In this document: positions 1-18,248 of the stretch, in pieces
Layout of the letters: each line of letters begins with the position of its first letter
How positions within the stretch are numbered: the stretch's first letter is position 1
Source of the DNA: a virus
Strand: one strand, 5' to 3'
DNA length: 64,000 nucleotides
Virus record (IMG/VR): IMGVR_UViG_3300025683_000003
Position numbers and translations under genes: made by a program
Notes under the pieces: model-generated
The model's input: only the letters and a program-made list of their open reading frames with translations
The model's database searches: none
What the model was told of the DNA's origin: nothing

Positions 1-1
1 T

Positions 2-199
2 GCAATACAACTATTGTATGCAAATGTTAAGTTTAAAACACCATGGTCACACCTTGCTATGCAAAAATACGACAAAGTTGATGCATTAAATTGCATTCAC
101 AACTATTACAGAGTTGATAATGGTAATAATGGCATAGAGCCAATGTATGAACTTTATAAAGAAGCTTTTGATTTATATAAACGAAGGAGTGTTATATGA
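2..199 (+). CDS. 5'-truncated hypothetical protein (frame open to the window edge)
   Basis: Frame +2 has no stop from nt 2 to the TGA at 197-199, which overlaps the endolysin ATG. The track's TTG start at 14 is probably internal. Confidence 0.6.
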   Translation, partial: AIQLLYANVKFKTPWSHLAMQKYDKVDALNCIHNYYRVDNGNNGIEPMYELYKEAFDLYKRRSVI

Positions 200-600
200 T
201 TACAATGCAGGAATTATTAAAAGATGCTAAATTTGAAGATCAGTCACAAGAAATACAGGACAATTTAGTTGAATTGCTGGTTCGAATCAATAAGGTTCGT
301 GCTGCATATGGGAAACCTATGAATGTGACTTCTGGACTTAGATCAATGGCAGATCATTTACGTATTTATGCTCAAAAAGGTATCACAGATCAGTCTAAAA
401 TCCCAATGCAATCTAATCATTTATATGGACGTGCAGTTGATATTAGTGATCCAAACAGAGAGTTGCAGGCTTGGGTACTAAAAAACGTTAAACTCATGGA
501 AGAAATCGGGCTATGGATGGAAGATTTTGGCGCTACCCCGAACTGGCTTCACTTTCAGATTAATCCACCCAAATCTGGCAACCGATTTTTTAAGCCCTAA
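196..600 (+). CDS. Peptidase M15 family endolysin (Zn peptidoglycan peptidase)
   Basis: M15 motifs: vTSGlRs...SnHlyGrAvD (HxxxxxxD) and the C-terminal WLHFQ His. Confidence 0.85.
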   Translation: MITMQELLKDAKFEDQSQEIQDNLVELLVRINKVRAAYGKPMNVTSGLRSMADHLRIYAQKGITDQSKIPMQSNHLYGRAVDISDPNRELQAWVLKNVKLMEEIGLWMEDFGATPNWLHFQINPPKSGNRFFKP

Positions 601-654
601 GATCCCTTCTTATACTGTCTTCAACAGGCATATATAAGTATATAAGCGCCCTAG

Positions 655-686
655 TTCGCAGATCGTTCCTACGTTTGCGAATTTTT
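655..686 (+). terminator. Probable intrinsic terminator between convergent genes
   Basis: Hairpin TTCGCA-gat-CGT-tcct-ACG-tt-TGCGAA (655-681) followed by TTTTT, 55 nt after the endolysin stop. Confidence 0.5.
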
Positions 687-762
687 AATAAAACACTAAG
701 TGTCACCAAGCTCGTAATTGACGAGACTTCATCTGTCACCTCTTGCATATCAATAATTTGTC

Positions 763-996
763 TCATAATTTTACCTTAAACATCTGTGTAGCATTCATTT
801 TACCAGTTGCGTCTACGTTCAATCTATAGTTGACCTGAGTAAACATTCGGTGATTGGTTTTGTGGTAAATTTCATTTGATATTCTCCCTGCTTTTTCAAA
901 ATACGCATACGGATACTTATCTCTAAGTATCTCCCTAATGTCCTTAAACATTACCTCATCCTCTTTATAAAAGCTTATTGGTCTAATTAGTTTCAT
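763..996 (-). CDS. Small DL-motif family protein, array A
   Basis: 77 aa; ends VNYRLNVDA; 14-nt overlap with the upstream member. Confidence 0.7.
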   Translation of the reverse strand: MKLIRPISFYKEDEVMFKDIREILRDKYPYAYFEKAGRISNEIYHKTNHRMFTQVNYRLNVDATGKMNATQMFKVKL

Positions 997-1222
997 ACTT
1001 TTTTAAATCCTTTACTAACATACCCTCGACAGCCGTTGATATTCTACTGTGACCATACCCCCTACTTCCACCAGGCATCTTTATGAGTACGTCATTTATA
1101 GCACTTCTGTGTTGTGATGAGCGTGCTACGATACCAAACATATGTGAAATACTAAAGCCACACTCTTCCTGACTTATAATGTAAATCAAGGAATCTCTCA
1201 GTTCATCGTCTATATTTTTCAT
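983..1222 (-). CDS. Small DL-motif family protein, array A
   Basis: 79 aa; ends VEGMLVKDLKK; ATGA coupling. Confidence 0.75.
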   Translation of the reverse strand: MKNIDDELRDSLIYIISQEECGFSISHMFGIVARSSQHRSAINDVLIKMPGGSRGYGHSRISTAVEGMLVKDLKKYETN

Positions 1223-1434
1223 TTTGCTACCCCAATAATATCTAACTCCACTCTACTTTTTATAATATAGTGAATGTTATCAATCAAGCGCTTGTTTAAG
1301 TGAAAATAGATAATGTCATACTTTGTGTATTCTTGGTATTTAGGATACAGCTGTTTGGCAGTATTGTTTATTTCGTCAATACTCGTTTTATCATATATTA
1401 AATCATTTAGATAGTATGCTGTTATTCTAGTCAT
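1219..1434 (-). CDS. Small DL-motif family protein, array A
   Basis: 71 aa; ends IKSRVELDI; ATGA coupling. Confidence 0.75.
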   Translation of the reverse strand: MTRITAYYLNDLIYDKTSIDEINNTAKQLYPKYQEYTKYDIIYFHLNKRLIDNIHYIIKSRVELDIIGVAK

Positions 1435-1649
1435 TGTTTTTCCAATTTTTTGAGGTCAATCCCAGATCGAGCTATAACAACACGAGCTACGTATGCGTCA
1501 GTAAGTCTTTCGACCTTACGTATATATAGAGATAGATCGTGAGCTGCCGAGTTACCATTATAGTATTTTTTAAATTCTATTGTGTAATCTAACACCCTAA
1601 ACATTCCCGTGTAAGCTTCTTGTTCGAGGTGTGGATCAATTAGTTTCAT
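1431..1649 (-). CDS. Small DL-motif family protein, array A
   Basis: Probable start MKLIDP at 1649 (GGGGTG SD-like upstream); ends VIARSGIDLKK. Confidence 0.7.
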   Translation of the reverse strand: MKLIDPHLEQEAYTGMFRVLDYTIEFKKYYNGNSAAHDLSLYIRKVERLTDAYVARVVIARSGIDLKKLEKQ

Positions 1650-1851
1650 GTTTGGGCACCCCATTTAAGTCTATTTTTAGTCGTTCCTCTACAACTACTG
1701 AAACGTAATGATATATAGACTTCACTGGACTAAATATTTTCTCAAATACGTAAATATTTGTCGAGAGATTGAAGCGATAAATAGTAAGATCAGTTATATC
1801 TGCTTTGATTATTCTGTGCCTAGACTCGTTTTGAAAGCTTATATATCTCAT
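1636..1851 (-). CDS. Small DL-motif family protein, array A
   Basis: Probable start MRYISF at 1851 (ATGA overlap with the upstream stop); ends VEERLKIDL. Confidence 0.7.
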   Translation of the reverse strand: MRYISFQNESRHRIIKADITDLTIYRFNLSTNIYVFEKIFSPVKSIYHYVSVVVEERLKIDLNGVPKHETN

Positions 1852-2036
1852 GCTTGACCACCTAACTTCTCCAAATCTCTTATTATAGAATTTTGAGCAG
1901 CATACCATACCTTTGTCTCAATCTTATTATATAACTCCATATGTACCCTGATGGGAGATATGTAATGCTCAGTTGGCATCATATAGAGTCCGAGGGTAAT
2001 TCTTAATTCATATTCTCTCAGCATTATGAGTTGCAT
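1848..2036 (-). CDS. Small DL-motif family protein, array A
   Basis: 62 aa; contains ELYNKI and ends AQNSIIRDLEK; TAATG coupling. Confidence 0.75.
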   Translation of the reverse strand: MQLIMLREYELRITLGLYMMPTEHYISPIRVHMELYNKIETKVWYAAQNSIIRDLEKLGGQA

Positions 2037-2233
2037 TACTTACCCACCCTCATTAAATCATCTTTAATTTGGTCTTTTATATTGTAGCTTAAATATAAGT
2101 GAGTTTTATTGTACAGATCAAAACGCAGCGCACTGCTTACCTTGTGGATAGCCAAGTTGATTGTTAGATACATCAGCCTATCTTGCGTCATAACAACCAG
2201 AGATTCGTCTGTGAAAAATTGTATTCTTCTCAT
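2036..2233 (-). CDS. Small DL-motif family protein, array A
   Basis: 65 aa; contains LRFDLYNK and ends IKDQIKDDL. Confidence 0.75.
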   Translation of the reverse strand: MRRIQFFTDESLVVMTQDRLMYLTINLAIHKVSSALRFDLYNKTHLYLSYNIKDQIKDDLMRVGK

Positions 2234-2442
2234 CGTCCCACCAACTTTAAAGCCCTATGAACTTCATTTTCAAGCGTCTCATACAGATTTTCACGAGTTT
2301 TATAATGCAAAACATCAAACAAATACTCATTAACAATCCTAGACGCATGACCGCGTGATCCATCAAATTTCCAGACTTTCTTCATACACTCTAACGAAGT
2401 CATTTCCACCATAATGTCCCCTCCAAAACATATTAGCTGCAT
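2230..2442 (-). CDS. Small DL-motif family protein, array A (D replaced by A)
   Basis: 70 aa; ends LENEVHRAL; same size and coupling as its neighbours. Confidence 0.7.
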   Translation of the reverse strand: MQLICFGGDIMVEMTSLECMKKVWKFDGSRGHASRIVNEYLFDVLHYKTRENLYETLENEVHRALKLVGR

Positions 2443-2645
2443 TTTGTACTCTCCTTCTCAAGATCATGAGTAATGCGCGTGGAGATTATTTTCATTAGGT
2501 GATGAGTGTATCTGATTTCCAAGGTATGATAGATGTGCCAGGCGTTAACAGGGGTTCTGCCTTGTAAAACAAGCTCCACGATAAATTCTGGGAACGTAGA
2601 CTCGCTAATCTTCACTCTGTTGTTGATGCATCTGACAAATCTCAT
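2433..2645 (-). CDS. Small DL-motif family protein, array A
   Basis: 70 aa; ends ISTRITHDLEK. Confidence 0.75.
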   Translation of the reverse strand: MRFVRCINNRVKISESTFPEFIVELVLQGRTPVNAWHIYHTLEIRYTHHLMKIISTRITHDLEKESTKCS

Positions 2646-2845
2646 ATTGTCACCATCTTAAACTGTTTTAAATCCCTACAAATAGCACGACCAACTTCTG
2701 TTTTGAGATGGGTTGTTCTTTGATTAATTCTATTGTAAAATCTGCACATACTAGCTATTTTCATTGCAGGTAGGCTATCGCGAACAAAATAATCTGACAT
2801 CATAATGGTTGCTGATGTATGTGTATAAAAAGTCACTCTAGTCAT
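2642..2845 (-). CDS. Small DL-motif family protein, array A
   Basis: 67 aa; ends VGRAICRDLKQ. Confidence 0.75.
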   Translation of the reverse strand: MTRVTFYTHTSATIMMSDYFVRDSLPAMKIASMCRFYNRINQRTTHLKTEVGRAICRDLKQFKMVTI

Positions 2846-3063
2846 TTAATCCCCCTTTGTAACCTACGTAGATCGTTTGATACTGCCATACGCATTTCGT
2901 TACACACTTCTACACTCATCTTGGAATAAATTATATTATTCAATCTGATAAAGATCGCATTTCTATATATTCTCTCTGTTAGGGCCGCCCATTCTTGCAG
3001 TACTTCCAACTGCATTAACGTATACACTTCGTGTGAGGAGATGGATTTAGATGGGGTTATCAT
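2842..3063 (-). CDS. Small DL-motif family protein, array A
   Basis: 73 aa; ends MRMAVSNDLRR. Confidence 0.75.
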   Translation of the reverse strand: MITPSKSISSHEVYTLMQLEVLQEWAALTERIYRNAIFIRLNNIIYSKMSVEVCNEMRMAVSNDLRRLQRGIK

Positions 3064-3287
3064 ATATCCACCCTATATAGATCAGATCTAACCATACTCC
3101 AAACCTCTATTCTGAATTTACCTGTGATTGTCTCTAATTTATGCTCCATTGGACACATAAGTCTTGCTCCATTAAAAATATCACTTCCATAACATTTCCA
3201 TGGGCTATTTAGGGCTAGTTTACAAATTTCAAAGCCAAAATTGATATGTATCTTATCGTGGATAATGTGTGGGTGTAGGTATTTCAT
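3060..3287 (-). CDS. Small DL-motif family protein, array A
   Basis: 75 aa; ends VWSMVRSDLYR. Confidence 0.75.
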   Translation of the reverse strand: MKYLHPHIIHDKIHINFGFEICKLALNSPWKCYGSDIFNGARLMCPMEHKLETITGKFRIEVWSMVRSDLYRVDI

Positions 3288-3475
3288 TTATAAAAATTCT
3301 CCATATCTCTCATTACAGAACTTTTCAAAACCCTATAATTTTTATGCTCCATTATACCGACTTGTAACGCAATAAAGACACTACTTCCTGTATATAGATG
3401 GTGAGAGAGTGAACTTGGAATTATATTTTGATTAATTAACCACGTCGTCATGGTGAATTGATAATTAACCCTCAT
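3284..3475 (-). CDS. Small DL-motif family protein, array A
   Basis: 63 aa; ends LKSSVMRDM. Confidence 0.75.
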   Translation of the reverse strand: MRVNYQFTMTTWLINQNIIPSSLSHHLYTGSSVFIALQVGIMEHKNYRVLKSSVMRDMENFYK

Positions 3476-3675
3476 ACTTCCATCCCCTTCAAATCGCGCC
3501 CCACCTGTATTGTCACATTGTCAGCAATCTCTCGGGCTATCATATCATCTAATATATCAGATAGCAAGGTGTCTAATTTTAGACATAGGGCGTAGAACTC
3601 GTTTCTGCGGTACTGTTTGTAGCAGAAGTTATGAAGGTCTCGTGATGCAATTCCTGTTATCCAAACTTGCTTCAT
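3472..3675 (-). CDS. Small DL-motif family protein, array A
   Basis: 67 aa; ends VTIQVGRDLK. Confidence 0.75.
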   Translation of the reverse strand: MKQVWITGIASRDLHNFCYKQYRRNEFYALCLKLDTLLSDILDDMIAREIADNVTIQVGRDLKGMEV

Positions 3676-3863
3676 TGTTTAATCCCAGTAAGTTTATAAA
3701 GATCTTTACATAATTGCCGCTGTTTTGGATGGTATATTAGGGAGCCGTGAGCGTGTCCTACACAAAGTTTTATCTTATCAAACGCCCCACCTTCGTCTAT
3801 ATAGGTTATTACTTTATATGGGAGTGTCCTAGCGCAGACAAGACTAACATTTAACCTTTTCAT
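3672..3863 (-). CDS. Small DL-motif family protein, array A
   Basis: 63 aa; ends KQRQLCKDLYK. Confidence 0.75.
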   Translation of the reverse strand: MKRLNVSLVCARTLPYKVITYIDEGGAFDKIKLCVGHAHGSLIYHPKQRQLCKDLYKLTGIKQ

Positions 3864-4051
3864 ATGACACCCATTTTTGCCAAATCTAACCTAACAATGT
3901 TGTCAGTCTTTTTATGTAGATTGTAGTAGCATTTAATATACATTACGTCATCAACAAGACTCCATAGGAGTACATACGGCCTCCTATTTAGGATTTTTCC
4001 AGCATTCATGTCGTAAATATCCCATACGTTGGGTGGGAAAAGTTGGGTCAT
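3860..4051 (-). CDS. Small DL-motif family protein, array A
   Basis: 63 aa; ends TDNIVRLDLAK. Confidence 0.75.
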   Translation of the reverse strand: MTQLFPPNVWDIYDMNAGKILNRRPYVLLWSLVDDVMYIKCYYNLHKKTDNIVRLDLAKMGVI

Positions 4052-4236
4052 TTTATTAACATCCTATATAAATCCATCTCTACTCGATCTTCAACCCTGT
4101 GCATAAGATTGTGTTTCATCTTTTTAGTGCATTTTAGTCGCAATAATCTTATTACACGGCCTCGTATCCATGGCTCAACCAATTCAGAGTCGGGTACTAA
4201 GTGTGATGGCAAAAATCTTCTTCCAATATGGTTCAT
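4048..4236 (-). CDS. Small DL-motif family protein, array A
   Basis: 62 aa; ends VEDRVEMDLYR. Confidence 0.75.
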   Translation of the reverse strand: MNHIGRRFLPSHLVPDSELVEPWIRGRVIRLLRLKCTKKMKHNLMHRVEDRVEMDLYRMLIK

Positions 4237-4559
4237 TATTTATCGACAATATCGGTTAGTAGCAATTTAATCTTTTTAAGGGTCTTACCAGCCTTAGACG
4301 TTCCTGTTGGATTGTACACATTAAAATTAAAATAAGCCTCCTCCAATAGATCCAAAGCATTTTGCAGGTGTTGTCGATTGGCATCATTTTCTTTTTCAAC
4401 CAAATCAACTCGTCGCTCTAGATCTTTCAACTGCCCCTCAGTGATAGGCTGGCTTGGCGTGTTAACTCTGACACTATTAGAGGACGTGGTCATATTTGAG
4501 CTACAAATTGGGCACATATATTCGTGACTTGACCATCCGTGTAAATAGCAATGGAACAT
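4236..4559 (-). CDS. Hypothetical protein with an N-terminal Cys/His cluster and a coiled coil
   Basis: CxxH...CPIC N-terminus; GGAG SD; coupled to the downstream gene. Confidence 0.6.
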   Translation of the reverse strand: MFHCYLHGWSSHEYMCPICSSNMTTSSNSVRVNTPSQPITEGQLKDLERRVDLVEKENDANRQHLQNALDLLEEAYFNFNVYNPTGTSKAGKTLKKIKLLLTDIVDK

Positions 4560-4570
4560 AATTACTCCTA

Positions 4571-4813
4571 TTAATCAAAAATTTTAAATTTAGTTTTAAA
4601 TTTAGATCTTATTCTGTCTAACTGATTAGGCTTAAGCACCTTAGATCTGTCAACTTTTCCATTTTTGACTGGGTGAACAAACCATGGGTTTGGTACTCCG
4701 TCTGCATGCACATATACCCTAGACTCATCACCTTTTACAGCAGCTAAAGCAGCGCATAGTGATCTGAATTTTTGAAAACATGTACCATTTCCATAAAATG
4801 CATATATTCTCAT
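4571..4813 (-). CDS. Hypothetical protein
   Basis: 80 aa ORF packed between neighbours, with an SD-like sequence upstream. Confidence 0.6.
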   Translation of the reverse strand: MRIYAFYGNGTCFQKFRSLCAALAAVKGDESRVYVHADGVPNPWFVHPVKNGKVDRSKVLKPNQLDRIRSKFKTKFKIFD

Positions 4814-4817
4814 CTTG

Positions 4818-5126
4818 CTACCCCTTAATCTTCTCTAAAACTTTTTGCGCTCTTTTACCAAAATCATCATTAATATTAGATGTTAATTGACTTCTTTCGT
4901 CGTTTGCGTAATGCCAATTCCAAGACCCCTCATCCTCATAAAACTTAAGAGCTTCTATACAAAGATCTAATTTCTCTCTAAGCTCGTTCTGGATCTTTAA
5001 ATGGCCTGCCTTAATATCTTCAAACTCAACAATTCGAGCATTGGCTTCATTTAATTTGCGCTGTAAATTTGCAAAGGCATATTCGTTTATAACAGAGGTG
5101 ATGTCTGGCTTCATACTAGTCCTCAC
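4818..5126 (-). CDS. Hypothetical coiled-coil protein (KLxxxxEAL family)
   Basis: EKLDLCIEALKFY resembles AKLLIAVEALEGI in 10813..11088. Confidence 0.6.
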   Translation of the reverse strand: MRTSMKPDITSVINEYAFANLQRKLNEANARIVEFEDIKAGHLKIQNELREKLDLCIEALKFYEDEGSWNWHYANDERSQLTSNINDDFGKRAQKVLEKIKG

Positions 5127-5889
5127 TCAGTAAAGCCTCAAGCTGCTCTACCTTCTCACTACTAACCTTATACTCTTTACCGCCAACTGTCACGGAAACC
5201 TTATCATTCTTTTTAATATTAGTCAATCTTGCTGGCTCTGCCCAATCCCTGCCTGTGAATTTCTTTTTTAACTTCCAAAAAGCACTGATAAGTTTAACCA
5301 CTTCGTATTCTCTTCCGTTTGGCATTTCAAAATGGTGCACAGTTCCTTGGCTGAGAACTTCAAATTTTGTTTTGTCCAAGTCACTAATTTCAATTTTAGC
5401 TATAACTTTATCAACATTAGGTTTGGTCCATCCCTCTCCAGCAATATATTTCATCGTTACATTGCTAAAACCTTCTGTAGCATCAAACTCTAAGCGGTCA
5501 GGGTATTGGCTATCGACACCTTGTAAATCTGCTGTCCATTTATGGACTATTTTTTTATTGTCTACACCTTTATCGCTCACGCTAGGGATCTGCACCACCT
5601 TTGTCTCCCATCCCTCAACTTTAGCTATAAAATTGTAAAATGGCATAAGCTTACCGTGAAGATCTACAAACGACATTATACGGTGACATGTAGAGGAGTT
5701 CGGGTGTATGTTGATGCCCCTTGGAAGAAGTCTTTCTTTAATGAAAAATGTTACAGAGTCGATTGGTGCACCGTCCATATAACCTAGGTTATTTGCAGGG
5801 ATTTTTAGTTCAATCGTGTCACCAACTCTACGATAACAACCAAATTCATATGATTGAAAATCAGCCACAAATTCATCAGAAGATTTCAT
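5116..5889 (-). CDS. Hypothetical protein, 257 aa
   Basis: Strong GGAGG SD; first gene after the promoter at 5909-5937. Confidence 0.75.
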   Translation of the reverse strand: MKSSDEFVADFQSYEFGCYRRVGDTIELKIPANNLGYMDGAPIDSVTFFIKERLLPRGINIHPNSSTCHRIMSFVDLHGKLMPFYNFIAKVEGWETKVVQIPSVSDKGVDNKKIVHKWTADLQGVDSQYPDRLEFDATEGFSNVTMKYIAGEGWTKPNVDKVIAKIEISDLDKTKFEVLSQGTVHHFEMPNGREYEVVKLISAFWKLKKKFTGRDWAEPARLTNIKKNDKVSVTVGGKEYKVSSEKVEQLEALLSED

Positions 5890-5908
5890 AATTCCTCCAC
5901 TATAGAGG

Positions 5909-5937
5909 AGTATAGCATACGATTTTTACTTAATCAA
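5909..5937 (-). promoter_or_regulatory. Sigma70-type promoter
   Basis: TTGATT-17 nt-TATACT with an extended -10 (TGc), followed by a GGAGG RBS. Confidence 0.7.
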
Positions 5938-6231
5938 GAAAAAACCAGACAGTATCATAATGATACCGACTATTTGAGTGGTAGTTAGTGAGAATGGTAT
6001 GAAGATGAATGGTACTAGAAGGAACATAAGGGTTAGTACCCCATCGTATATAAGTCCGTACAGAGGAATTGATGGCTCTGGTATTGATCTAACAATCTGC
6101 ACCCAGCATAGATTGGCAAAGATGCCGATAATGACAGCTAGAATTGTATGGGTGTTTTTGGCGACAAGGAATGGCAGACTAGCGCTTGCTGCATAAAGCA
6201 TAGCTGCTAGTATGAAGAATAGTATCGTCAT
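5926..6231 (-). CDS. Small 4-TM membrane protein, SMR/DMT-like
   Basis: 101 aa, four hydrophobic segments; C-terminal QIVGIIMILSG is typical of DMT/EamA-type repeats. Confidence 0.5.
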   Translation of the reverse strand: MTILFFILAAMLYAASASLPFLVAKNTHTILAVIIGIFANLCWVQIVRSIPEPSIPLYGLIYDGVLTLMFLLVPFIFIPFSLTTTQIVGIIMILSGFFLIK

Positions 6232-6249: not shown

Positions 6250-6552
6250 TTAACTTCTTCTCTTAGCGCCTGCAACTCTTTTGCAATTGCAAAAAAAAGC
6301 TCTATCTAGGCCATTTTGATATGGGCTATTTGTCATAGTAAGGTTTGTTTCGTATGGCGTATTCTCACCAATAACAATCTCGTCTACAATTTTAATTTCA
6401 GACACATCAGGATAGTAGGGGGTAATTAATCCTTGTATTGAGCTTAAAGAGTCCCTCACCTTTAGTGATTGGCCACATATGTGGCACACTTCTTGATTTT
6501 CGTCTACTGATGCTTGACATCCATAACATATGCCGCGATTATTCGAAGTCAT
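6250..6552 (-). CDS. Zinc-ribbon hypothetical protein
   Basis: CYGC...CHICG near the N-terminus. Confidence 0.6.
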   Translation of the reverse strand: MTSNNRGICYGCQASVDENQEVCHICGQSLKVRDSLSSIQGLITPYYPDVSEIKIVDEIVIGENTPYETNLTMTNSPYQNGLDRAFFCNCKRVAGAKRRS

Positions 6553-6698
6553 TTCTTCTCCCTAGCTTTGAGTAAAGCCTTTTTATATTCTGGGTCTGTT
6601 GGATATTTAACAATAACCCTACACTTACTGCAAACCAGTCCACCCATTTTAATGATAGGCTTACCTTTATATTTGCATTCTTGGCAGGTTATTGTCAT
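6549..6698 (-). CDS. Small zinc-ribbon protein (49 aa, below the track cutoff)
   Basis: MTITCQECK...VCSKCRV; ATGA overlaps at both ends. Confidence 0.6.
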   Translation of the reverse strand: MTITCQECKYKGKPIIKMGGLVCSKCRVIVKYPTDPEYKKALLKAREKK

Positions 6699-7367
6699 GA
6701 ATTTACCAAAGCGTCTAGCTTTCCATACAGCTTGTGGTATAGTTCGTCTATTTCATTATACTTATATTCCCAAAAATCAGCTCTAAGGTGTGGGTCAATA
6801 TTTTTAGCGGAGCACAATGGCTTAAATTGAGTGCGACCGTCTTTAATGTGAAGTGCTGAGATAAGCTCACAAAGCTTTTTATGTTGGGGCTGAGTTACGA
6901 TTGGATACCCTTTATCAGAAATAAAATGGTCTAGGTCTCCAAAATATTTTTTTACAATATCTTTATTTTTCATTTCACAATCCTTAGGTTCGGAATAACT
7001 GCCACTTGCTCAATACCGCTAGACCAAAGCTCAAAGCCACGCTTAGACTTCTCACCGGCTTTTGTAATAGGTGAGGCAACAACATTGCCGTCAAAATTAA
7101 GATCAATAACTTTCCAATAACGTTTATTATCAGTAAGGATTGAGCCGAGCTTTGCTTTTTTAAGAATCTGTGCAATCGTTTTCATTTGACCTCCAACACA
7201 TTATTATCTTTGTCAAAGAATTTTAATAAAATACAAGACTTGCCATTGTCATCAACTTCCTCCATAGTACACTGAAATACCTTAGTGACATCCACCATAC
7301 ATGCGAAGTCAAAAAGATCTAGGTAGGCTTCTCCGTCCTCGGTCTGCTTTACGCTAATTGTTTTCAT
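6695..7367 (-). CDS. Three coupled hypothetical ORFs (6695..6973, 6970..7185, 7182..7367)
   Basis: Consecutive ATGA overlaps. Confidence 0.6.
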
Positions 7368-7540
7368 AGATTATCCTTTTCAATAGGTTCATATTTGTAT
7401 GTTTTCATTGATGGCCACTTTCCAAATTCATACTGAAAAGATCCTCTCGATTTATAATAATGCACATGAAGTGTCCCACCTACATCGACAGCCTCAGCAA
7501 TATACTCTTTAGTCTTTTTATGGATAAGTCTATATCTCAT
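7364..7540 (-). CDS. Small hypothetical protein (58 aa, below the track cutoff)
   Basis: MRYRLIHKK...EKDNL; fills the gap, overlapping both neighbours by 4 nt. Confidence 0.6.
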   Translation of the reverse strand: MRYRLIHKKTKEYIAEAVDVGGTLHVHYYKSRGSFQYEFGKWPSMKTYKYEPIEKDNL

Positions 7541-7773
7541 TTTAAAGCCTCTTTATACTTGTTAAACAAATCTGTTGCCCACTCGCTACTATTCCTAGGA
7601 AATTCTTCATTACAATCAGGACATCTTAGGGCCACTAACCCATCATACACTCCAATATATCCACCGTCAATACCTATCTCACGCTTCCAATGAGTACCTG
7701 AGTAGTGGTGCGCTATATCTTCTGGTATTTTATCTCCTAACCATGAAGACTTACATTTAGGGCAATTGTCCAT
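7537..7773 (-). CDS. Zinc-ribbon hypothetical protein
   Basis: CPKC...CPDC. Confidence 0.65.
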   Translation of the reverse strand: MDNCPKCKSSWLGDKIPEDIAHHYSGTHWKREIGIDGGYIGVYDGLVALRCPDCNEEFPRNSSEWATDLFNKYKEALK

Positions 7774-7782
7774 ATTAGGCTC

Positions 7783-8217
7783 CTACAAGCTTATTTTGAT
7801 TGTGTGAAATGTTTTAGTTTCTATAGGGTCCCATACTACTTCTTTTTTAGTTGTAGTAAATATCCACATAAACTTATCTTCCACATCAATATATCTAGCA
7901 GAGTATTTTGTAGTGTACTCTTTTGGGGTAATTTCTACTTTATATCCAAAGTCTCTAAACTTATTTAAAAGATCTTCCCTACAGTATTTTGACTCTTGTC
8001 CATATGGAGTAGGAGAAAACGAGTGTTGAATCAGTCCGTTTGAATCTGTGTATTCCTTAACCTCTCTAGATCTCTCAAAAGGTCCTGTTTCAAAAGATCC
8101 ATATCTTTCAATGTGCCAGTAAATAGTTTCTACTGCACTTTCAAATTTAGAGGCTTCTTCTTTTGCCTTCTCTTCTTCTTTCTTCTTACGCATCTCATCT
8201 GCTGTTAATATTTTCAT
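7783..8217 (-). CDS. Hypothetical protein
   Basis: 144 aa; coupled to the upstream ORF. Confidence 0.6.
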   Translation of the reverse strand: MKILTADEMRKKKEEEKAKEEASKFESAVETIYWHIERYGSFETGPFERSREVKEYTDSNGLIQHSFSPTPYGQESKYCREDLLNKFRDFGYKVEITPKEYTTKYSARYIDVEDKFMWIFTTTKKEVVWDPIETKTFHTIKISL

Positions 8218-8423
8218 AACTCACCTTCAAATGTACTTGTATATACAGTCTCTCCGTTACCTTCATCATCATAATCTTCGATCACTCGCTCTGGAGGCTG
8301 CATTCCAGCGTTCTCAATTTCCTGTAGAACGTCAGATAATTCACTCTCGCTAAACTGGTAGTCTTGTGGTACTCGGCTATTTAAAATTTCTCCAAGCTTC
8401 GTAATCATCTCACTTCGTTTCAT
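8214..8423 (-). CDS. Hypothetical protein (MKRSEM family)
   Basis: MKRSEM...IENAGMQPP; paralog of 9329..9700. Confidence 0.65.
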   Translation of the reverse strand: MKRSEMITKLGEILNSRVPQDYQFSESELSDVLQEIENAGMQPPERVIEDYDDEGNGETVYTSTFEGEL

Positions 8424-8430
8424 AATTCAC

Positions 8431-8787
8431 CTATTTCTTTGGCACATTTTTACAAGGAATTTTATAATATGTTTGAACTTCCTCAACAGAAATATATCCT
8501 TCTTGCCATATTTTAATAGGGTTACTAAAAGCATCTTCATGATCTACTAGTGTAAAAACGCGAAGATCTGCAAGAATATCTTTGTCTTTTTTGTATTTCC
8601 CTAATTTATAGTAATTGTTACTATCACCATTATAATAGCAAGTATTAATATTTAAAGCAATATTTAATTGCCTCTTCAAGTCAATTACCTCTGCCTTAAG
8701 TTGTTGGTTTTCAATGACGTAGTTACCTTCTGTTTTGACGTTACACCCTACCATAAATACGAAGCTTAACAAAATTAATATCTTCAT
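8431..8787 (-). CDS. Putative lipoprotein
   Basis: MKILILLSFVFMVG-C lipobox. Confidence 0.6.
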   Translation of the reverse strand: MKILILLSFVFMVGCNVKTEGNYVIENQQLKAEVIDLKRQLNIALNINTCYYNGDSNNYYKLGKYKKDKDILADLRVFTLVDHEDAFSNPIKIWQEGYISVEEVQTYYKIPCKNVPKK

Positions 8788-8927
8788 ACAAACAATCTCC
8801 TCTGTTCATTAAACTCTTCTATTGTGATTCTATACCCCTCATAAAACATAATTCCAGTCCATAAATCTTTTGGCCATTTATAATCATGATCGTGCAATGC
8901 TTTGCGTATAGCTGAGGTTTTGTCCAT
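8784..8927 (-). CDS. Small hypothetical protein (47 aa, below the track cutoff)
   Basis: MDKTSAIRK...RLFV; TAATG and ATGA coupling. Confidence 0.55.
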   Translation of the reverse strand: MDKTSAIRKALHDHDYKWPKDLWTGIMFYEGYRITIEEFNEQRRLFV

Positions 8928-9325
8928 TAAAAATCCTCCAAGCAAGAGATAAAGGCTTCATGAACTACTTTATGAACTAAATTTTCATCTTTTTTATCAA
9001 ACTCTTTGCACTCTGCGTCTGCTTCAGTAGCTTTGGCAAACTTTAAGAAAGGTAAATGAGTCCATCTGTCTTGATTCTTATTGTAGACAGCTATACAATA
9101 GTATTTATCCTCCACAAGTTATTCCTTTTCGTATGGGATCATAATTGTCTCAACGTTTCTTTGTCGAATATGTTGTTCAATTACAGATCTGGCTGCATCT
9201 TCGGACGTACATATATAATATAGATATATCTTATGCCATCCTGTTAACCAAAGAAGTATATTTTTGTACCTATACTCTGGGTGGTACATATATCCAGTTT
9301 TTCTAATTCTATACTCTAATTCCAT
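8927..9325 (-). CDS. Two small hypothetical ORFs (8927..9115, 9119..9325)
   Basis: Tight packing on the coding strand. Confidence 0.55.
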
Positions 9326-9328
9326 TAA

Positions 9329-9700
9329 CTACCTCCACTTTAACCCTACCTTTTTTAAAACTTCTATAGCCTCATCACTTGGATTTTGCACATCGAAGAA
9401 GACAAATTCTCCTGTGTCTGGGTCTGTAATATGCATATATTCTGGTACTCCAAAATTTGCCTGTGACTTTGAAATTAAGGATATAAATTCTTCATCCGAC
9501 AAACCATCTTCCGCATCCCATCCGTTATCCATCATACCAAGCTGATTTAACTTTGTCAATGGTGGAAGCATCCCTTGTTCTTCTATTTTAGTCAATAAGA
9601 AGTCGCTAAACTCCCCATCGTCTAAATACGATAAAGGGCCATTGCCGTATCGCTCTGCAAAATAAGTTTCAATTAGTCGTACCATTTCGCTACGTTTCAT
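9329..9700 (-). CDS. Hypothetical protein (MKRSEM family)
   Basis: MKRSEM...IEEQGMLPP. Confidence 0.65.
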   Translation of the reverse strand: MKRSEMVRLIETYFAERYGNGPLSYLDDGEFSDFLLTKIEEQGMLPPLTKLNQLGMMDNGWDAEDGLSDEEFISLISKSQANFGVPEYMHITDPDTGEFVFFDVQNPSDEAIEVLKKVGLKWR

Positions 9701-9921
9701 TGCTGATCGTCCCCTTTAAATTCAGCTTCATACACATAAACCGATCTATCCTCGCAGGTAATTGTAGTCTTATGGCTTACTGTATCAACCTCAACAAAAA
9801 AAGGGATGCCGTTGCATGCTTTATACACATTATTTAAAAATTCTGGCCCTAGGACAATCTTTCTGGTCTCACACCCAGTCGACAAAAATAACGCCAATAA
9901 AATAATGCTACGTTTCATCAC
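9697..9921 (-). CDS. Putative small lipoprotein
   Basis: MKRSIILLALFLSTG-C lipobox plus two further Cys. Confidence 0.6.
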   Translation of the reverse strand: MMKRSIILLALFLSTGCETRKIVLGPEFLNNVYKACNGIPFFVEVDTVSHKTTITCEDRSVYVYEAEFKGDDQQ

Positions 9922-10433
9922 TCCCCCTTTAATTTCTTCCGCAAATCTTCCATTGATAATGGAATTCCATTTATATTTTCTACAGATACATTAATATAGC
10001 GTGGATCTAATCCACCATCTTCAAATCTTATGGAATTGTGATGCACATGACCATGAACATTAATTTTACCGCGAAGTTCTTGCGGATGAACTGGGGCATG
10101 ACTGAGCCACATGCCATTTTCTTTAACTATACCAAAAACGTTATTAAAATACTTTAAGTAGGCTTCAGTGGATTGTGTGTCGTGATTGCCACGAACTAGG
10201 CGCTTGTACCCTCTAAGTCTATCAACAAGTTTTAAAGCCTCTCCAGAGAATGCCACATCTCCCAGCACCCAAACCATGTCATTTTTTTGAACTACAGAGT
10301 TCCACTGTGAGATAATCCATTCATCATGCTCTTCAATATTAGTACCACCCCTTTGTGGGCTAAACCCTAATATCTTTTTGTGGCCTAAATGTAGATCTCC
10401 AATGAAAAACGTGTTACTCATGGCTGTCTCCAA
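9918..10433 (-). CDS. Calcineurin-like metallophosphoesterase
   Basis: GDLHLGH, LGDV, RGNHD, SHAP and HGHVH motifs. Confidence 0.9.
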   Translation of the reverse strand: METAMSNTFFIGDLHLGHKKILGFSPQRGGTNIEEHDEWIISQWNSVVQKNDMVWVLGDVAFSGEALKLVDRLRGYKRLVRGNHDTQSTEAYLKYFNNVFGIVKENGMWLSHAPVHPQELRGKINVHGHVHHNSIRFEDGGLDPRYINVSVENINGIPLSMEDLRKKLKGE

Positions 10434-10810
10434 AATTGTATAGACTGGCTACCAGCACTTGTTTTTTGTAAACTCTTATTATCTAGCATATAAAAATATA
10501 ATTCAAACATATCAGAGCATCTTCGTTTAGACGCTATCCTCTGCAAGTCAATCTCTGTATGGTATGGGGATGCTACACGGCTTTTTCTATTTTTTTCATT
10601 TAAATACAACATACAATCTCTAACAATGAGCGCCTCTCTAAGGGTTTTATATCGTCCACACATCATAGTCTTATGACCGCAAGATTGCGTTACTCTATAT
10701 GTAAGGCCATCTTTTCTTGTGTATGTCTCATGTATTGAGGTTAGATTAGCCTCTCGATATTCTTTTCCTGGAACTCTGATTATTTTTTTAACATACAATC
10801 TCTTATTCAT
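10418..10810 (-). CDS. Hypothetical protein, possibly an AP2-like DNA-binding domain
   Basis: YRVTQSCGHKTMMCGRYKTLREALIVRD resembles the AP2 pattern G.f.T.eeA...rD. Confidence 0.4.
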   Translation of the reverse strand: MNKRLYVKKIIRVPGKEYREANLTSIHETYTRKDGLTYRVTQSCGHKTMMCGRYKTLREALIVRDCMLYLNEKNRKSRVASPYHTEIDLQRIASKRRCSDMFELYFYMLDNKSLQKTSAGSQSIQFWRQP

Positions 10811-10812
10811 AG

Positions 10813-11088
10813 CTAACCTCGCAATTTCTTTAGTGCATCACCTGCGCAATAATGACACTCTAACTCTGTTGTTGTTTCATCACCCTTTGTAGAAGCTTTT
10901 TGAATTCCTTCCAGAGCCTCGACAGCAATTAAAAGCTTTGCTTCCAATCTATCAATAATCCAATCTCTAGATTCTAGGTTATTCTCAAGCTCCTCCAATT
11001 CCATATATGCTTGTTCTAGATCAATCAAAAGGCATCTTGGACAATTATATTGCTGTGAAATTGTGTGACAATATTCTCGTTTACTCAT
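10813..11088 (-). CDS. Hypothetical coiled-coil protein (KLxxxxEAL family)
   Basis: N-terminal CH...CPRC plus KLLIAVEAL. Confidence 0.6.
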   Translation of the reverse strand: MSKREYCHTISQQYNCPRCLLIDLEQAYMELEELENNLESRDWIIDRLEAKLLIAVEALEGIQKASTKGDETTTELECHYCAGDALKKLRG

Positions 11089-11096
11089 TTAAACTC

Positions 11097-11576
11097 CTAC
11101 TTTCCAGACGATCCATAACCTTGGTCGCCTCGTTCAGTTGATGATAACTCATCTACTTCTACTAAGTCAATAGCTGGATATGGAATAATTAACAATTGAC
11201 AGATTCTGTCACCAGGATTGTAAGAACCTATATGACCAACCTCTAAATTGTATGAGTGATTCTCGTTAACTGTGTTAAATCTAGCAGTTATCTCTCCTCG
11301 AAAATTTGAATCAATCACTCCAACAGCATTCCCTAAGGTCATATTAGTTTTAACAATAGACGATCTTGGGAATATCAAGCCGACATATCCTTCTGGGATT
11401 TCAACAGCAATACCTGTCCCATACACATACTGACATTGATTGTTGACATACTCGATTTTTTTCGTCATAGCCGTTAAATCAATCCCTGCATCCCCATCTC
11501 GTGAATATTTTGGTGTTGGCACTCCACCCATTAACTTTTTAAACTTAACTGGCATCTTAGTTTGTGGATACTTCAT
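11097..11576 (-). CDS. dut: Trimeric dUTPase
   Basis: Motifs AGIDL, PRSS, GVIDSNFRG, GDRICQ and RGDQGYGSSG. Confidence 0.95.
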   Translation of the reverse strand: MKYPQTKMPVKFKKLMGGVPTPKYSRDGDAGIDLTAMTKKIEYVNNQCQYVYGTGIAVEIPEGYVGLIFPRSSIVKTNMTLGNAVGVIDSNFRGEITARFNTVNENHSYNLEVGHIGSYNPGDRICQLLIIPYPAIDLVEVDELSSTERGDQGYGSSGK

Positions 11577-11761
11577 ACTTTCTCCTTATTTTTAACATCT
11601 TTAAAGACCATATCATCAACTGTATCGTATAATCGTATTCCTATTAGTAGGAAAATTTTTAGCTCTATAACAATTGGATTAACCTTTGTGTGCAAAGAGT
11701 TCAGCATATTCTTCTTTAAATCAGAAAGGGTTTCCTGTAAGTCAAGTTGGATATTTTTCAT
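11573..11761 (-). CDS. Small DL-motif family protein, cluster B
   Basis: 62 aa; ends VDDMVFKDV. Confidence 0.75.
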   Translation of the reverse strand: MKNIQLDLQETLSDLKKNMLNSLHTKVNPIVIELKIFLLIGIRLYDTVDDMVFKDVKNKEKV

Positions 11762-11985
11762 GCCTTCCCACTCTTCATACTTACTCTTATCTCTTCTAAA
11801 TCTTTCATCACTTGCGAATCTACTGGCTCATAGACGTAGTCAACCAGCAGGCATCCAAGTTCTCCATTAAGTCCAACGCTATCTCTTATGGCTTGCTCAA
11901 CTCTTTTGTTTACAAAATCTGCAATTACCCTAATATTCATGACTGGTATGCTATCTAGATAAAGTTCCCACTCAAGGTTTCTCAT
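11758..11985 (-). CDS. Small DL-motif family protein, cluster B
   Basis: 75 aa; YEPVDSQVMKDL. Confidence 0.75.
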   Translation of the reverse strand: MRNLEWELYLDSIPVMNIRVIADFVNKRVEQAIRDSVGLNGELGCLLVDYVYEPVDSQVMKDLEEIRVSMKSGKA

Positions 11986-12193
11986 ACAAGACCCTATTCA
12001 TATCCCTTAAATCTTTCATAATTCCCATTTCTACAACTCTTGATATGTTATGTAAAATACGATCAGATACTCCTCCATAAATAATAATGTCTGGCTTTTC
12101 TATCAAATCTTCAAAATCATGCATCATCCATCGAATTTTATTATTAAATTGGGGTTTCATACTTTCCCATAACTGATTCTGTAAATTTTTCAT
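11972..12193 (-). CDS. Small DL-motif family protein, cluster B
   Basis: 73 aa; VEMGIMKDL. Confidence 0.75.
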   Translation of the reverse strand: MKNLQNQLWESMKPQFNNKIRWMMHDFEDLIEKPDIIIYGGVSDRILHNISRVVEMGIMKDLRDMNRVLYEKP

Positions 12194-12387
12194 ACAAACC
12201 TACTTTTTATATCAACCACTATCATTTGTGTGACTGGTAGTCTTAATTCCATTTCTCTTTTTTTAAGACCTATTTTTTCATATAAATCAAATCTCAATTG
12301 AATTTCAAGCAATTCCCTTGTAGCAACCCCAATATCTATATTCATTTTAGTGATGCTTCCCATTGAAATTTTACTAAGATTATTCAT
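12190..12387 (-). CDS. Small DL-motif family protein, cluster B
   Basis: 65 aa; LRFDLYEK and VTQMIVVDI. Confidence 0.75.
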   Translation of the reverse strand: MNNLSKISMGSITKMNIDIGVATRELLEIQLRFDLYEKIGLKKREMELRLPVTQMIVVDIKSRFV

Positions 12388-12590
12388 GATGGATTCACCT
12401 TTTTGAGGTCTCTTTCTAATTGATTGTATGTTTGTATATAAATGTGTTCATGTATTTTTTTAAAAATAATAGCGTATATTTTCCTAGAGATATGTCTATT
12501 TACTGGCTCAATACCTATGTCTAAATCTGCTATTCTATGTAGCGGACCATGATTATAATAAGATAGCAGATTAAGCTCTATTGGAATCAT
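12384..12590 (-). CDS. Small DL-motif family protein, cluster B
   Basis: 68 aa; TYNQLERDL. Confidence 0.75.
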   Translation of the reverse strand: MIPIELNLLSYYNHGPLHRIADLDIGIEPVNRHISRKIYAIIFKKIHEHIYIQTYNQLERDLKKVNPS

Positions 12591-12805
12591 TATGCGTTTT
12601 CCTTAAAATTAAGAAGATCTGAGTATGTTGAACTTTCTACCACACCAGAAACTTTTATTATTAACTTTTCACCTAGCAAAACATCTAAATATCCACATAT
12701 AGCTATTTGTTTATAGGGCGTAACTTTACGCATACTAAGAAAGGATACCAATTCTTCACGAACCCTACCTACATTTAATAGATACGCCACATTTCTCATA
12801 ATCAC
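12590..12805 (-). CDS. Small DL-motif family protein, cluster B
   Basis: 71 aa; VESSTYSDL. Confidence 0.75.
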   Translation of the reverse strand: MIMRNVAYLLNVGRVREELVSFLSMRKVTPYKQIAICGYLDVLLGEKLIIKVSGVVESSTYSDLLNFKENA

Positions 12806-13951
12806 CTAAAATAAGTCTAAAATTTTACCAAAGTCTGGATGAAAAGATCCTTCAGCAGTACGTAGCCACAAAACTGGAAACTTTGGCTTTAATGGAATGT
12901 CTGCTGGGTCCATATCAGTCACATAAACTGCAACGTCACAGCCTAGCTTTGCAGCCGCATCAAAGGCTGGTTGGTACAATGTTCCACCCCTTCCTTTAAA
13001 TCCGTTAAATTTTGCTTTTTTAAATTCATATGGAGGTTTTTGCACTGTTGCATCAGCTTCAATAACCCAAATCTCATAGCCAAGCTTTTCAAGCTTCACC
13101 ATCTCAGCAACGGCCATTTGCAGCATATCTTCAGACATAGAGCCTGATGTGTCTACAATAAAAGCAATTGTAGGTGTAAAAATACGCTTTTTACCAGGTA
13201 TTGTAAAACCATAGCGTCTATTTCGCTTATTTCTTGTAATTTTATAGCTATGATCAACAGCAGAGGTAATGTATCTTTTCATTACAGCTCTCCAGTCAAC
13301 CTTACTTTTCTTAAAACTATCAATAGTCAGATCAGCAATTCCTGGAATATCACCAGGGCCGCAATGCTTTCTTGCATTTTCTAAAATACCTACAGTGAGA
13401 GCTTTACCTAAGGTAGGGTTATCGTTACCCCAATCGTGTTCATCAAAATTGGGCATGCTAACAATTTTTTCTTGTAATTCGTTTTTAACTTGTTTCAAGT
13501 AATTGAAGTAGTATTCAGAAGTCTCATTCTCCTTGATGCTATTATCCTCACAGAATTTACGAAGACTATCAACTGTCCAGGGTTTGAATTCCCCTTCTTT
13601 TGGAAAAAGAACTTTAGCGTCTGTTAAAATTTCATGTATTGCAATGTCTTTCGCTATATTTGCAATCGTATGATCGTTTTTGTTGGGCAAACGCTCTCCC
13701 CCTAAATGCCCAAGGACAATGTGGGCCATTTCATGGCACACTACAAAGACTCTTTGTTCTGGAGTTAATTTTTCAAAAAACTCAGTGCCAATAGTCATGT
13801 GCACTGATGAGCCTTGTATCCTAACTCCAGCTGTGGGGAATTTTTTGTCAAAACCAACCTTTAGCTGCAATAATATATGTGCAAAATATTTATGTCTAGA
13901 CACAAGCCTAATGATTGTATCTTCATACATCGAACGAACTGATCTGGACAT
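12806..13951 (-). CDS. VWA domain protein with an N-terminal HExxH metallopeptidase-like domain (DUF2201-type)
   Basis: VCHEMAH; MIDAS DTSGSM; GRGGT; VYVTD. Probable start MSRS at 13951 with a GGAGG SD. Confidence 0.88.
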   Translation of the reverse strand: MSRSVRSMYEDTIIRLVSRHKYFAHILLQLKVGFDKKFPTAGVRIQGSSVHMTIGTEFFEKLTPEQRVFVVCHEMAHIVLGHLGGERLPNKNDHTIANIAKDIAIHEILTDAKVLFPKEGEFKPWTVDSLRKFCEDNSIKENETSEYYFNYLKQVKNELQEKIVSMPNFDEHDWGNDNPTLGKALTVGILENARKHCGPGDIPGIADLTIDSFKKSKVDWRAVMKRYITSAVDHSYKITRNKRNRRYGFTIPGKKRIFTPTIAFIVDTSGSMSEDMLQMAVAEMVKLEKLGYEIWVIEADATVQKPPYEFKKAKFNGFKGRGGTLYQPAFDAAAKLGCDVAVYVTDMDPADIPLKPKFPVLWLRTAEGSFHPDFGKILDLF

Positions 13952-13970
13952 AAATTCCTCCATTAATACA

Positions 13971-13999
13971 ATACTACACCAACAAGCATGCTTGGTCAA
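13971..13999 (-). promoter_or_regulatory. Sigma70-type promoter with a 12-bp palindrome in the spacer
   Basis: TTGACC-17 nt-TAGTAT; palindrome CAAGCATGCTTG at 13983-13994. Confidence 0.55.
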
Positions 14000-14211
14000 T
14001 TATCTTTATTTTTCGTTAGGTCAACTTCGACCATACTTTTTGTCTGATTATATACATGCTCTATTCTATGCTCAACAAGATATTCAAGCCTTTCCTCAAT
14101 CTCATCAATAATTTCAGATGAGGTGAGGCTAAGTAATCCGCTCCGAGGTCTCCCCCAGAGCAGGAAATTCATTCTTGTGTAGTCACGAAACTTATAGTTT
14201 AAGTTAATCAT
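13996..14211 (-). CDS. Small DL-motif family protein inside the AAA/VWA operon
   Basis: 71 aa; RLEYL and TKSMVEVDL. Confidence 0.75.
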   Translation of the reverse strand: MINLNYKFRDYTRMNFLLWGRPRSGLLSLTSSEIIDEIEERLEYLVEHRIEHVYNQTKSMVEVDLTKNKDN

Positions 14212-16158: not shown

Positions 16159-16377
16159 TTATTTTCTTTGTATCACAATGATACTGCTTTCAATAGCATC
16201 TTGATATAATTGTTTATCAACTGGTTCATACAGACATCTTTCTGTTAAATAGTCAAGCTCTTCTTCCAGATCTGACGCCCTATCTAAGATTGCTGAGTAC
16301 AATACATAGTCTATATCATAATGAAATTCATTAAGACGGAGGATACGATTAATGTGCATCTGCTTCATTTGCTTCAT
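16159..16377 (-). CDS. Small DL-motif family protein upstream of the AAA gene
   Basis: 72 aa; YEPVDKQLYQD. Confidence 0.75.
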   Translation of the reverse strand: MKQMKQMHINRILRLNEFHYDIDYVLYSAILDRASDLEEELDYLTERCLYEPVDKQLYQDAIESSIIVIQRK

Positions 16378-16577
16378 TTGCTTCTCTTCAACACTTTAAA
16401 ATCGCGTTTTACTTGGGCATCTACCATATCTCCAATCATATATTCTAGTCGTAATTCAAATTCTATCCACAGTGGGTTTTCAATATGCACGTATATGATA
16501 TCTGTAATAAAGTCTATTGTCCTTCTGGGCCTTATATCTAACAATGACTGGAGATTTATTTGTTTATTTTGTTTCAC
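16374..16577 (-). CDS. Small DL-motif family protein upstream of the AAA gene
   Basis: 67 aa; RLEYM and VDAQVKRDF. Confidence 0.75.
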   Translation of the reverse strand: MKQNKQINLQSLLDIRPRRTIDFITDIIYVHIENPLWIEFELRLEYMIGDMVDAQVKRDFKVLKRSK

Positions 16578-18041: not shown

Positions 18042-18219
18042 TTTTTGCTAAATTCCTTTTAAGTTTATTGAATTTTTTAGTTGATCCAATCAGGTATTTA
18101 GTCCGAGTTGTGACTCCATCATATGTTATGACGCCAGTATGATAATCGACAGTCATGAACATATTAAGATCGTCAATGTAAAAAATTGCCTCTACAGCTG
18201 TTTTCTTGTTTGTTTTCAT
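18007..18219 (-). CDS. Hypothetical protein, tandem paralog 1
   Basis: EAIFYIDDLNMFMTVD...G; homologous to 18249..18467. Confidence 0.7.
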   Translation of the reverse strand: MKTNKKTAVEAIFYIDDLNMFMTVDYHTGVITYDGVTTRTKYLIGSTKKFNKLKRNLAKIGAEYVGTSIF

Positions 18220-18248
18220 AATTATTTCCTAATCCTCTGTTTGTAAAA

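Follow-up and report, generated by a model that had tools for sequence, protein, structure and literature searches.

The 64,000-nucleotide (nt) stretch of the virus record IMGVR_UViG_3300025683_000003 from IMG/VR (hereafter the window, i.e. the whole stretch of DNA that was analyzed) carries 27 copies of a very small gene. Eighteen of them form a tandem array on the minus strand at positions 590-4236 (array A) with products of 58-79 amino acids (aa), and nine are found between 11.6 and 16.6 kb (cluster B). Judged from sequence comparisons, all 27 copies are real genes of one new lineage-specific small-protein family that has been expanded by tandem duplication. The copies, called minis in the following, occupy about 5.5 kb or about 9% of the window. 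They overlap their neighbors in array A, differ in number between related phages, and are fast-evolving yet constrained according to comparisons of orthologous sequences. According to their composition and to structure prediction, the products are soluble, mostly basic, alpha-helical proteins of 58-79 aa. An initial annotation of this DNA had described 17 tandem open reading frames (ORFs) of 62-79 aa at 763-4236 and a total of roughly 26 paralogues. The sizes, which assume the starts set by public gene callers, and the assignment to one family were retained, whereas the counts had to be raised to 18 and 27, since a gene of 58 aa at 590-766 (mini 18) belongs to the same family.

Identification of the family

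The statistical support for a common origin comes from several profile comparisons, the first of which were done with 26 members and left mini 18 outside the set. When hidden Markov models (HMMs) were built by leaving out one member at a time, no more than 5 of 200 shuffled versions of the same sequence scored as high or higher for 21 of the 26 members, and none did for 12 of them. The HMM trained on array A only found four cluster B genes as its top matches outside the training set (E 2e-7 to 2e-3), 12 array A genes ranked first with the HMM trained on cluster B only, and the alignment of the two profiles by hhalign gave P=4.5e-6. Moreover, the sequences LRFDLYNK and LRFDLYEK sit at equivalent positions in the respective members of the two clusters, the relationship of which had already been proposed in the initial annotation and is confirmed here. 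Hence, the leave-one-out, cross-cluster and hhalign results identify tandem paralogues, defined as at least three adjacent and statistically related genes. The description of these genes as barely alignable is also appropriate, because paralogue pairs share 7-29% identity and the best blastp match among them has E=5e-4. Mini 18, which was absent from the HMM training set, was found with E=4e-4 among the 272 ORFs of the window; the best of the remaining 245 ORFs reached only E=0.19, and the family domain was not found within larger proteins of the window.

The C-terminal DL motif noticed initially clearly exceeds random expectation. Defined as [hydrophobic]xxD[LIMVF] within the last 20 residues, it was detected in 21 of the 26 members, whereas composition-preserving shuffles (n=5000) yield it in 3.5 members on average and in no more than 10; among further small proteins encoded by this phage, 5 of 43 have it. 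The Asp was found in 16 of the 17 members known at first, exactly as had been stated, while the gene at 2230-2442 has Ala instead. The Leu of the motif is written with five codons (TTA, TTG, CTT, CTA, and CTC) and the codons at the hydrophobic positions vary as well, indicating that the conservation results from selection on the protein and not on the DNA. The longest DNA repeat in array A comprises 27 nt at 74% identity; the lack of remaining repeats implies that the duplications are old and that the copies have been retained. A cause of the motif at the nucleotide level, for example a promoter or RNA signal in front of the next start, was considered and rejected on the basis of these varying codons and missing DNA repeats.

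Anatomy of the proteins and of their gene junctions

A profile of 44 sequences anchored on the conserved Asp, which is present in 42 of them, was used to describe the protein anatomy. Hydrophobic residues are found at positions -23, -19, -15, -11, -7, -3, +1, and +4 relative to the Asp with an occupancy of 64-98%, which corresponds to a spacing of 4,4,4,4,4,4,3, where a canonical coiled coil would show 3,4. The shared C-terminal segment thus covers approximately 30 residues with a hydrophobic residue at every fourth position, a common Arg at -4, the near-invariant Asp, and then Leu. The residues past the motif are variable and often rich in Gly, and the coding DNA at this site consists of G-rich, Shine-Dalgarno-like stretches. 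At the other end of the proteins, position 4 is hydrophobic in 41 of the 44 sequences, 39 of which have I, L or V there, and positions 6 and 8 are often hydrophobic. Furthermore, the N-terminal half is 44% identical in nine orthologous pairs, compared to 37% for the C-terminal half, implying that each paralogue retains its own head. Such conserved heads agree better with old copies of distinct function than with a tip that can vary freely. Accordingly, from the initial picture of a fixed C-terminal anchor and a free N-terminus only the anchor can be kept.

The amino acid composition is that of soluble proteins, mostly basic (pI 8-10.6) with several acidic copies (pI 4.6-5.6), and inspection by eye gave no membrane segments. 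Structure models were calculated by AlphaFold2 for two members. The protein encoded at 2036-2233 is predicted as a single helix from residue 10 to 64 with a mean predicted local distance difference test (pLDDT) score of 87, the protein encoded at 3472-3675 as two helices (residues 9-21 and 24-65) with a mean pLDDT of 85. In both models residues 1-8 are coil, the long C-terminal helix dominates, and neither strands, a helix-turn-helix nor tertiary packing are seen.

All 18 junctions of array A overlap, counting that between the first mini and the 107-aa gene upstream of it, which is even more than the nearly complete overlap of stop and start codons reported before. Thirteen overlaps comprise 4 nt (ATGA), two 14 nt, one 10 nt, and two 1 nt, and a G-rich, Shine-Dalgarno-like stretch for the following gene is embedded in the last codons of every gene. 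This combination of start/stop overlaps and Shine-Dalgarno-like stretches makes it likely that the array A copies are produced together through translational coupling. Since the ATGA overlap forces the second codon to start with A, the residue at position 2 (K, R, T, N or I) is dictated by the overlap and was dismissed as a conserved feature of the proteins.

Divergence between related phages

The family was seen in two related uncultured phages only, one represented by contig L013 and the other by contigs L009 and L012. In L013, an endolysin gene with a 91% identical product is followed by 13 minis and then by a 111-aa gene (62% identical to the gene at 4236-4559), which corresponds to the slot of array A. 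These 13 genes give the best HMM matches of this contig and show a sharper motif, R-[VLI]-[RK]-x-D-L; six of the 13 have a recognizable counterpart in the window with 31-52% identity and in roughly the same order. In L009/L012, four minis are situated between the gene for a von Willebrand factor type A (VWA) domain protein, which is 89-95% identical, and the dUTPase gene, where the phage analyzed here has six. The L009 minis are 46-63% identical, compared to 75-99% for their neighbors. Hence, the copy number varies between conserved flanks, 18 versus 13 in the array A slot and 6 versus 4 in the VWA-dUTPase slot. A counterpart of array A in the L009 phage, which is the closest relative, was sought in the contig collection by means of the 107-aa gene and was not found, and the DNA fetched from more distant relatives (endolysin 67-76% identical) contained no family member. 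In three further contigs (L015, L016, and L018), genes for DUF6745 and DUF2201 proteins are located directly beside the endolysin gene and minis are lacking.

Pairwise rates of nonsynonymous (dN) and synonymous (dS) substitutions were estimated by NG86 for eight mini orthologue pairs and twelve flanking genes. The dN values of the minis amount to 0.26-0.80, compared to 0.005-0.26 in 11 of the 12 flanking genes, the exception being the fast gene for a 257-aa protein at 5116-5889 with 0.50. In terms of identity, orthologous minis reach 31-63% and most flanking genes 75-99%. The dN/dS ratios of the minis, calculated with dS near or past saturation in the array regions, range from 0.16 to 0.55, while most neighbors show 0.06-0.30, indicating that purifying selection acts on the minis, though less strongly than on the adjacent genes. 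Along 6549-13999, the dS between this phage and L009/L012 was strongly mosaic, with 0.07-0.10 at 6970-7773, 0.38 at 9918-10433 and values around 1 in the genes for the dUTPase and the VWA protein, which points to recent recombination between lineages.

Searches for known homologues were consistently negative. In Pfam-A, PHROGs (27 members) and PADLOC (44), no family was matched by more than one member with E values up to 1, the best ones being 0.006-0.02. With regard to anti-defence proteins such as anti-CRISPR or anti-restriction proteins, known inhibitor families in Pfam and PHROG were not matched, and no helix-turn-helix regulator gene, which could be a marker of the aca type, adjoins array A. 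A tblastn search with two members against 50,697 phage records of GenBank gave zero matches, the family profile did not match the genome of Myxococcus phage Mx1, and the best hit of a sequence profile search of the PDB had an E-value of 0.41. A sequence look-up among the other DNA stretches of the same survey did not find the family either. At the structural level, Foldseek returned nothing at E <=0.001 from PDB and BFVD, the wide search with VIA-align yielded only generic long helices with Z <=5.8, and the comparison with the ESM Atlas gave scores of <=0.86 and no consistent family. The initially suggested role as decoys, sponges or inhibitors was therefore not substantiated by PADLOC, Pfam, PHROGs, PDB or the fold libraries.

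Possible functions of the minis

The reading that we prefer, and to which we assign about an even chance, is that the minis are lineage-specific, translationally coupled accessory binding proteins, which are probably directed against the host; their binding, their time of expression and the host-directed role are what we infer from the sequences. The shared C-terminal segment would act as a common scaffold or docking helix, and the paralogue-specific N-terminal half would give each copy its own binding target. As a whole, the set might represent an accessory repertoire against host or competitor proteins that serves in host takeover, counter-defence or exclusion, and that would grow, shrink and diverge quickly between related phages.

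Several observations weigh against this interpretation. The initial annotation had seen an arms-race diversification in the array. Fast divergence and copy-number change were indeed found, but an arms race or positive selection is not demonstrated by the sequence comparisons, because dN/dS stays below 1 and dS is near or past saturation. With two relatives compared, the divergence of paralogues alone is no evidence for an ongoing arms race. The apparent confinement to a few close relatives could in part be due to a low sensitivity of the searches. A database-wide HMMER search returned the own copies, two L009 orthologues as well as a repeat protein and an ankyrin protein, which were taken as spurious, and with the weak family profile even the 13 L013 copies were missed; hence, its sensitivity is limited and the family is possibly somewhat wider than seen. 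Regarding the structure, Asn at -12 (15 of 44 sequences) and Pro at -8 (7 of 44), together with the 4.0-residue spacing, suggest a helix break in some members that is absent from the models. For short helical proteins with shallow alignments, AlphaFold may assign too high a confidence, and the ESM Atlas model of one member has a low confidence (pLDDT 0.44). Finally, no RNA run was among those listed with this DNA, and the metatranscriptome contigs of a study that also provided one of the DNA samples containing this phage showed only chance matches of 18-30 nt to the window.

Among the other explanations, it appears unlikely that the minis are self-assembling helical subunits, which pair or bundle via their hydrophobic stripe and whose coupled translation fixes the proportions of a mixed oligomer. 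Such an assembly would explain why the models consist of long helices without tertiary packing, since helices of this type normally need a partner helix, and it agrees with the hydrophobic stripe being conserved in all copies and with the coupling of all junctions. However, the period of 4.0 residues over 28 residues is not that of a heptad repeat and may reflect two shorter helices packing together, and the gain or loss of a third of the subunits between close relatives is not expected for a structural assembly.

It is also rather unlikely that the minis are adaptors or clients that dock with the C-terminal Asp helix on one phage partner, while the heads bring different targets. As partners, the VWA/MIDAS domain of the DUF2201 protein together with the MoxR-type AAA+ ATPase, or alternatively the ClpP or GroEL of the phage, can be proposed. 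The nine cluster B copies are interleaved with the genes for MoxR (AAA_5), DUF6745 and DUF2201 (HExxH and VWA), and the translation of the DUF2201 gene (12806-13999) keeps both the D-x-S-x-S MIDAS motif and HExxH. MIDAS sites, for example in integrin I-domains or the MIDAS domain of midasin, bind an acidic residue of the ligand, which was counted in favor of this explanation. Moreover, ClpP and GroEL are encoded by the phage, and a surface conserved in the entire family combined with paralogue-specific heads matches the design of adaptors. On the other hand, 18 of the 27 copies, those of array A, are located 8 kb away from the MoxR/VWA genes, and relatives with DUF6745 and DUF2201 genes beside the endolysin show no minis in the flanks that were fetched, from which it follows that these enzymes do not need minis. 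In its most specific form, which we regard as very improbable, the Asp helix of an adaptor library would bind at the MIDAS of the VWA-metallopeptidase acting with MoxR, and the heads would deliver host proteins for remodelling or cleavage. If true, this would be a programmable disposal system for host proteins with a specificity set that changes by tandem duplication.

A further explanation regards the minis as near-neutral duplicated filler that persists owing to frequent tandem duplication and low cost and has no specific function. The extreme divergence, the variable copy number and the absence of a detectable function speak for it. We regard it as rather improbable, because the dN/dS ratios of 0.16-0.55 in eight orthologue pairs indicate constraint, because frames, sizes, overlaps, the motif and the N-terminal halves are kept between phages with saturated synonymous sites, and because no DNA repeats are left, as expected for old, retained copies. 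Last, small nucleic-acid-binding regulators, for example of a ribbon-helix-helix-like type with an own site for each copy, would be in line with the basic character of most copies (pI 8-10.6) and the strand-like hydrophobic alternation at positions 4, 6 and 8, but are very unlikely, since the Pfam search at E up to 1 gave no match to ribbon-helix-helix or other DNA-binding proteins for any member, the AlphaFold models contain neither a strand nor a helix-turn-helix, several copies are acidic (pI 4.6-5.6), and the array and its surroundings showed no repeated DNA sites.

Comparison with known viral gene families

The architecture of array A is of a known kind, namely that of multigene families restricted to one lineage and of plastic regions with small genes in large viruses, while the protein family is new. 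Genomic accordions of large viruses are exemplified by the amplification of K3L in poxviruses and the multigene families (MGF) of African swine fever virus. These share with the minis the head-to-tail paralogues, variable copy number, fast divergence and a presumed host-directed role. However, K3L and the MGF proteins target, for example, PKR or interferon pathways and are usually larger, whereas the minis have 58-79 aa, no DNA similarity left and no visible sign of recent amplification. Clusters of small early or host-takeover genes in large virulent phages are represented by the hyperplastic regions of T4, the SPO1 module gp37-gp60 and the Tre genes of Twort-like phages. As in these cases, the minis are packed small genes without database homologues that are found on the strand of the replication genes and vary between relatives; in contrast to these clusters of mostly unrelated genes, all 27 minis are members of a single family and have a motif in common. 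The polymorphic internal-protein (Ip) loci of T-even phages likewise encode a variable set of small basic proteins with one short conserved segment on divergent bodies. The Ip segment is an N-terminal capsid-targeting and cleavage signal of packaged proteins, whereas that of the minis is a C-terminal helix without an evident protease site, and their genes are not located in a structural module. Large virulent phages hold many small genes of unknown function, for which the minis give a tractable entry point due to their statistical support, the helix with a single invariant acidic residue, and the paralogue-specific heads that are conserved between phages.

The phage and its gene inventory

The window belongs to a large, uncultured phage of sludge digesters, which is a virulent and distant relative of the Myxococcus phage Mx1. 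The latter is its nearest named relative with 42% identity for GroEL, 30% for the Pol III alpha subunit, and a gene order common to both. Identical DNA (100%) was found on 16 metagenome contigs including two ENA assemblies and two JGI samples, and Logan runs with the same DNA are labelled as activated sludge and anaerobic digester. Every other contig with array A is 100% identical and thus provides no variants for a comparison within the population. A megablast search with positions 1-6000 gave zero matches to GenBank phages, and scans of IMG/VR with the AAA+ protein and the 257-aa protein gave remote matches only or none. The window has 36% G+C and is nearly completely coding. The genes between about 53.7 kb and 590 are oriented leftward, those beyond rightward, and array A forms the far end of this 53-kb leftward block, which contains replication and nucleotide-metabolism genes. 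Among the encoded proteins are a GroEL-type chaperonin, the Pol III alpha subunit, a DnaB-type helicase, a ClpP-like protease, a protein with a Mom-like domain, the MoxR-type AAA+ ATPase, the DUF2201 metallopeptidase-VWA protein and the DUF6745 protein.

In the order of transcription on the minus strand, array A is preceded by the 107-aa gene at 4236-4559, a non-member without a Pfam or PHROG match, which marks the conserved slot. The first mini at 4048-4236 (62 aa) overlaps it by 1 nt and is followed by two genes of 63 aa each (3860-4051 and 3672-3863) and by the one at 3472-3675 (67 aa), for which an AlphaFold2 model was calculated and which has an L013 orthologue with 52% identity. Next come the genes at 3284-3475 (63 aa), 3060-3287 (75 aa; L013 orthologue with 38% identity), 2842-3063 (73 aa), 2642-2845 (67 aa) and 2433-2645 (70 aa), and then the one at 2230-2442 (70 aa), which has Ala in place of the conserved Asp and an L013 orthologue with 35% identity. 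The second modelled member at 2036-2233 (65 aa; leave-one-out score of 18.3 bits) adjoins the genes at 1848-2036 (62 aa), 1636-1851 (71 aa from the ATG at 1851) and 1431-1649 (72 aa from the ATG at 1649). Toward the end of the array, the gene at 1219-1434 (71 aa) has an L013 orthologue with 33% identity (E=4e-13) and is followed by those at 983-1222 (79 aa) and 763-996 (77 aa). The latter is the weakest member, with the D of the motif lacking its L and a weak L013 orthologue of 31% identity. Mini 18 (590-766, 58 aa) is the last gene. It carries the C-terminal motif I-R-R-D-L, is called as a gene in public assemblies, and its 3' end overlaps by 11 nt the convergent endolysin-like gene (Peptidase_M15_3, PF08291) on the plus strand at 196-600, which is the other boundary of the slot.

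The nine remaining members are also encoded on the minus strand. Six form the first part of cluster B at 11573-12805 (11573-11761, 11758-11985, 11972-12193, 12190-12387, 12384-12590, and 12590-12805), one at 13996-14211 is situated between the DUF6745 gene and the gene for DUF2201 with its metallopeptidase and VWA domains, and two at 16159-16577 (16159-16377 and 16374-16577) are located upstream of the MoxR-type AAA+ gene.

A possible promoter for a unit reaching from 5889 to 590 is found on the minus strand at 5909-5937 (TTGATT, a 17-nt spacer with TG, TATACT), preceded by a terminator-like hairpin at 5950-5968. It was obtained by a consensus scan only and is regarded as a candidate, because the counts of promoter and terminator sites in this region are not higher than expected by chance.

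Some minor observations were made in the surroundings of the minis. The 102-aa gene at 4818-5126, just upstream of array A, has a homologue at L009:2019-2315 between the dUTPase and phosphoesterase genes; its displacement implies that small genes move between slots. The 198-aa protein encoded at L009:4607-5203 is 78% identical to residues 61-257 of the 257-aa protein (5116-5889), and its first 75 residues are 51% identical to the 100-aa protein at 6250-6552. The gene for a 101-aa membrane-like protein (5926-6231) is lacking in L009 between its counterparts of 5116-5889 and 6250-6552. The leftward block of a related phage contains an IS605 OrfB/TnpB (Cas12f-like) gene (L015:13071-14261, L016:14677-15618). 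ARAGORN found zero tRNA genes in the window (1-64000). The region 18470-19613 encodes the ClpP-like protease (PF00574, E=2e-35) and then a 176-aa protein with a weak match to Sigma70 region 2 below the Pfam cut-off. Two adjacent genes of 70 and 72 aa at 18007-18467 are clear paralogues of each other by eye, which stand outside the DL family and share AVEAIFY, NMFMT/NVFMT, and GVITYDG/GTVNYNG.

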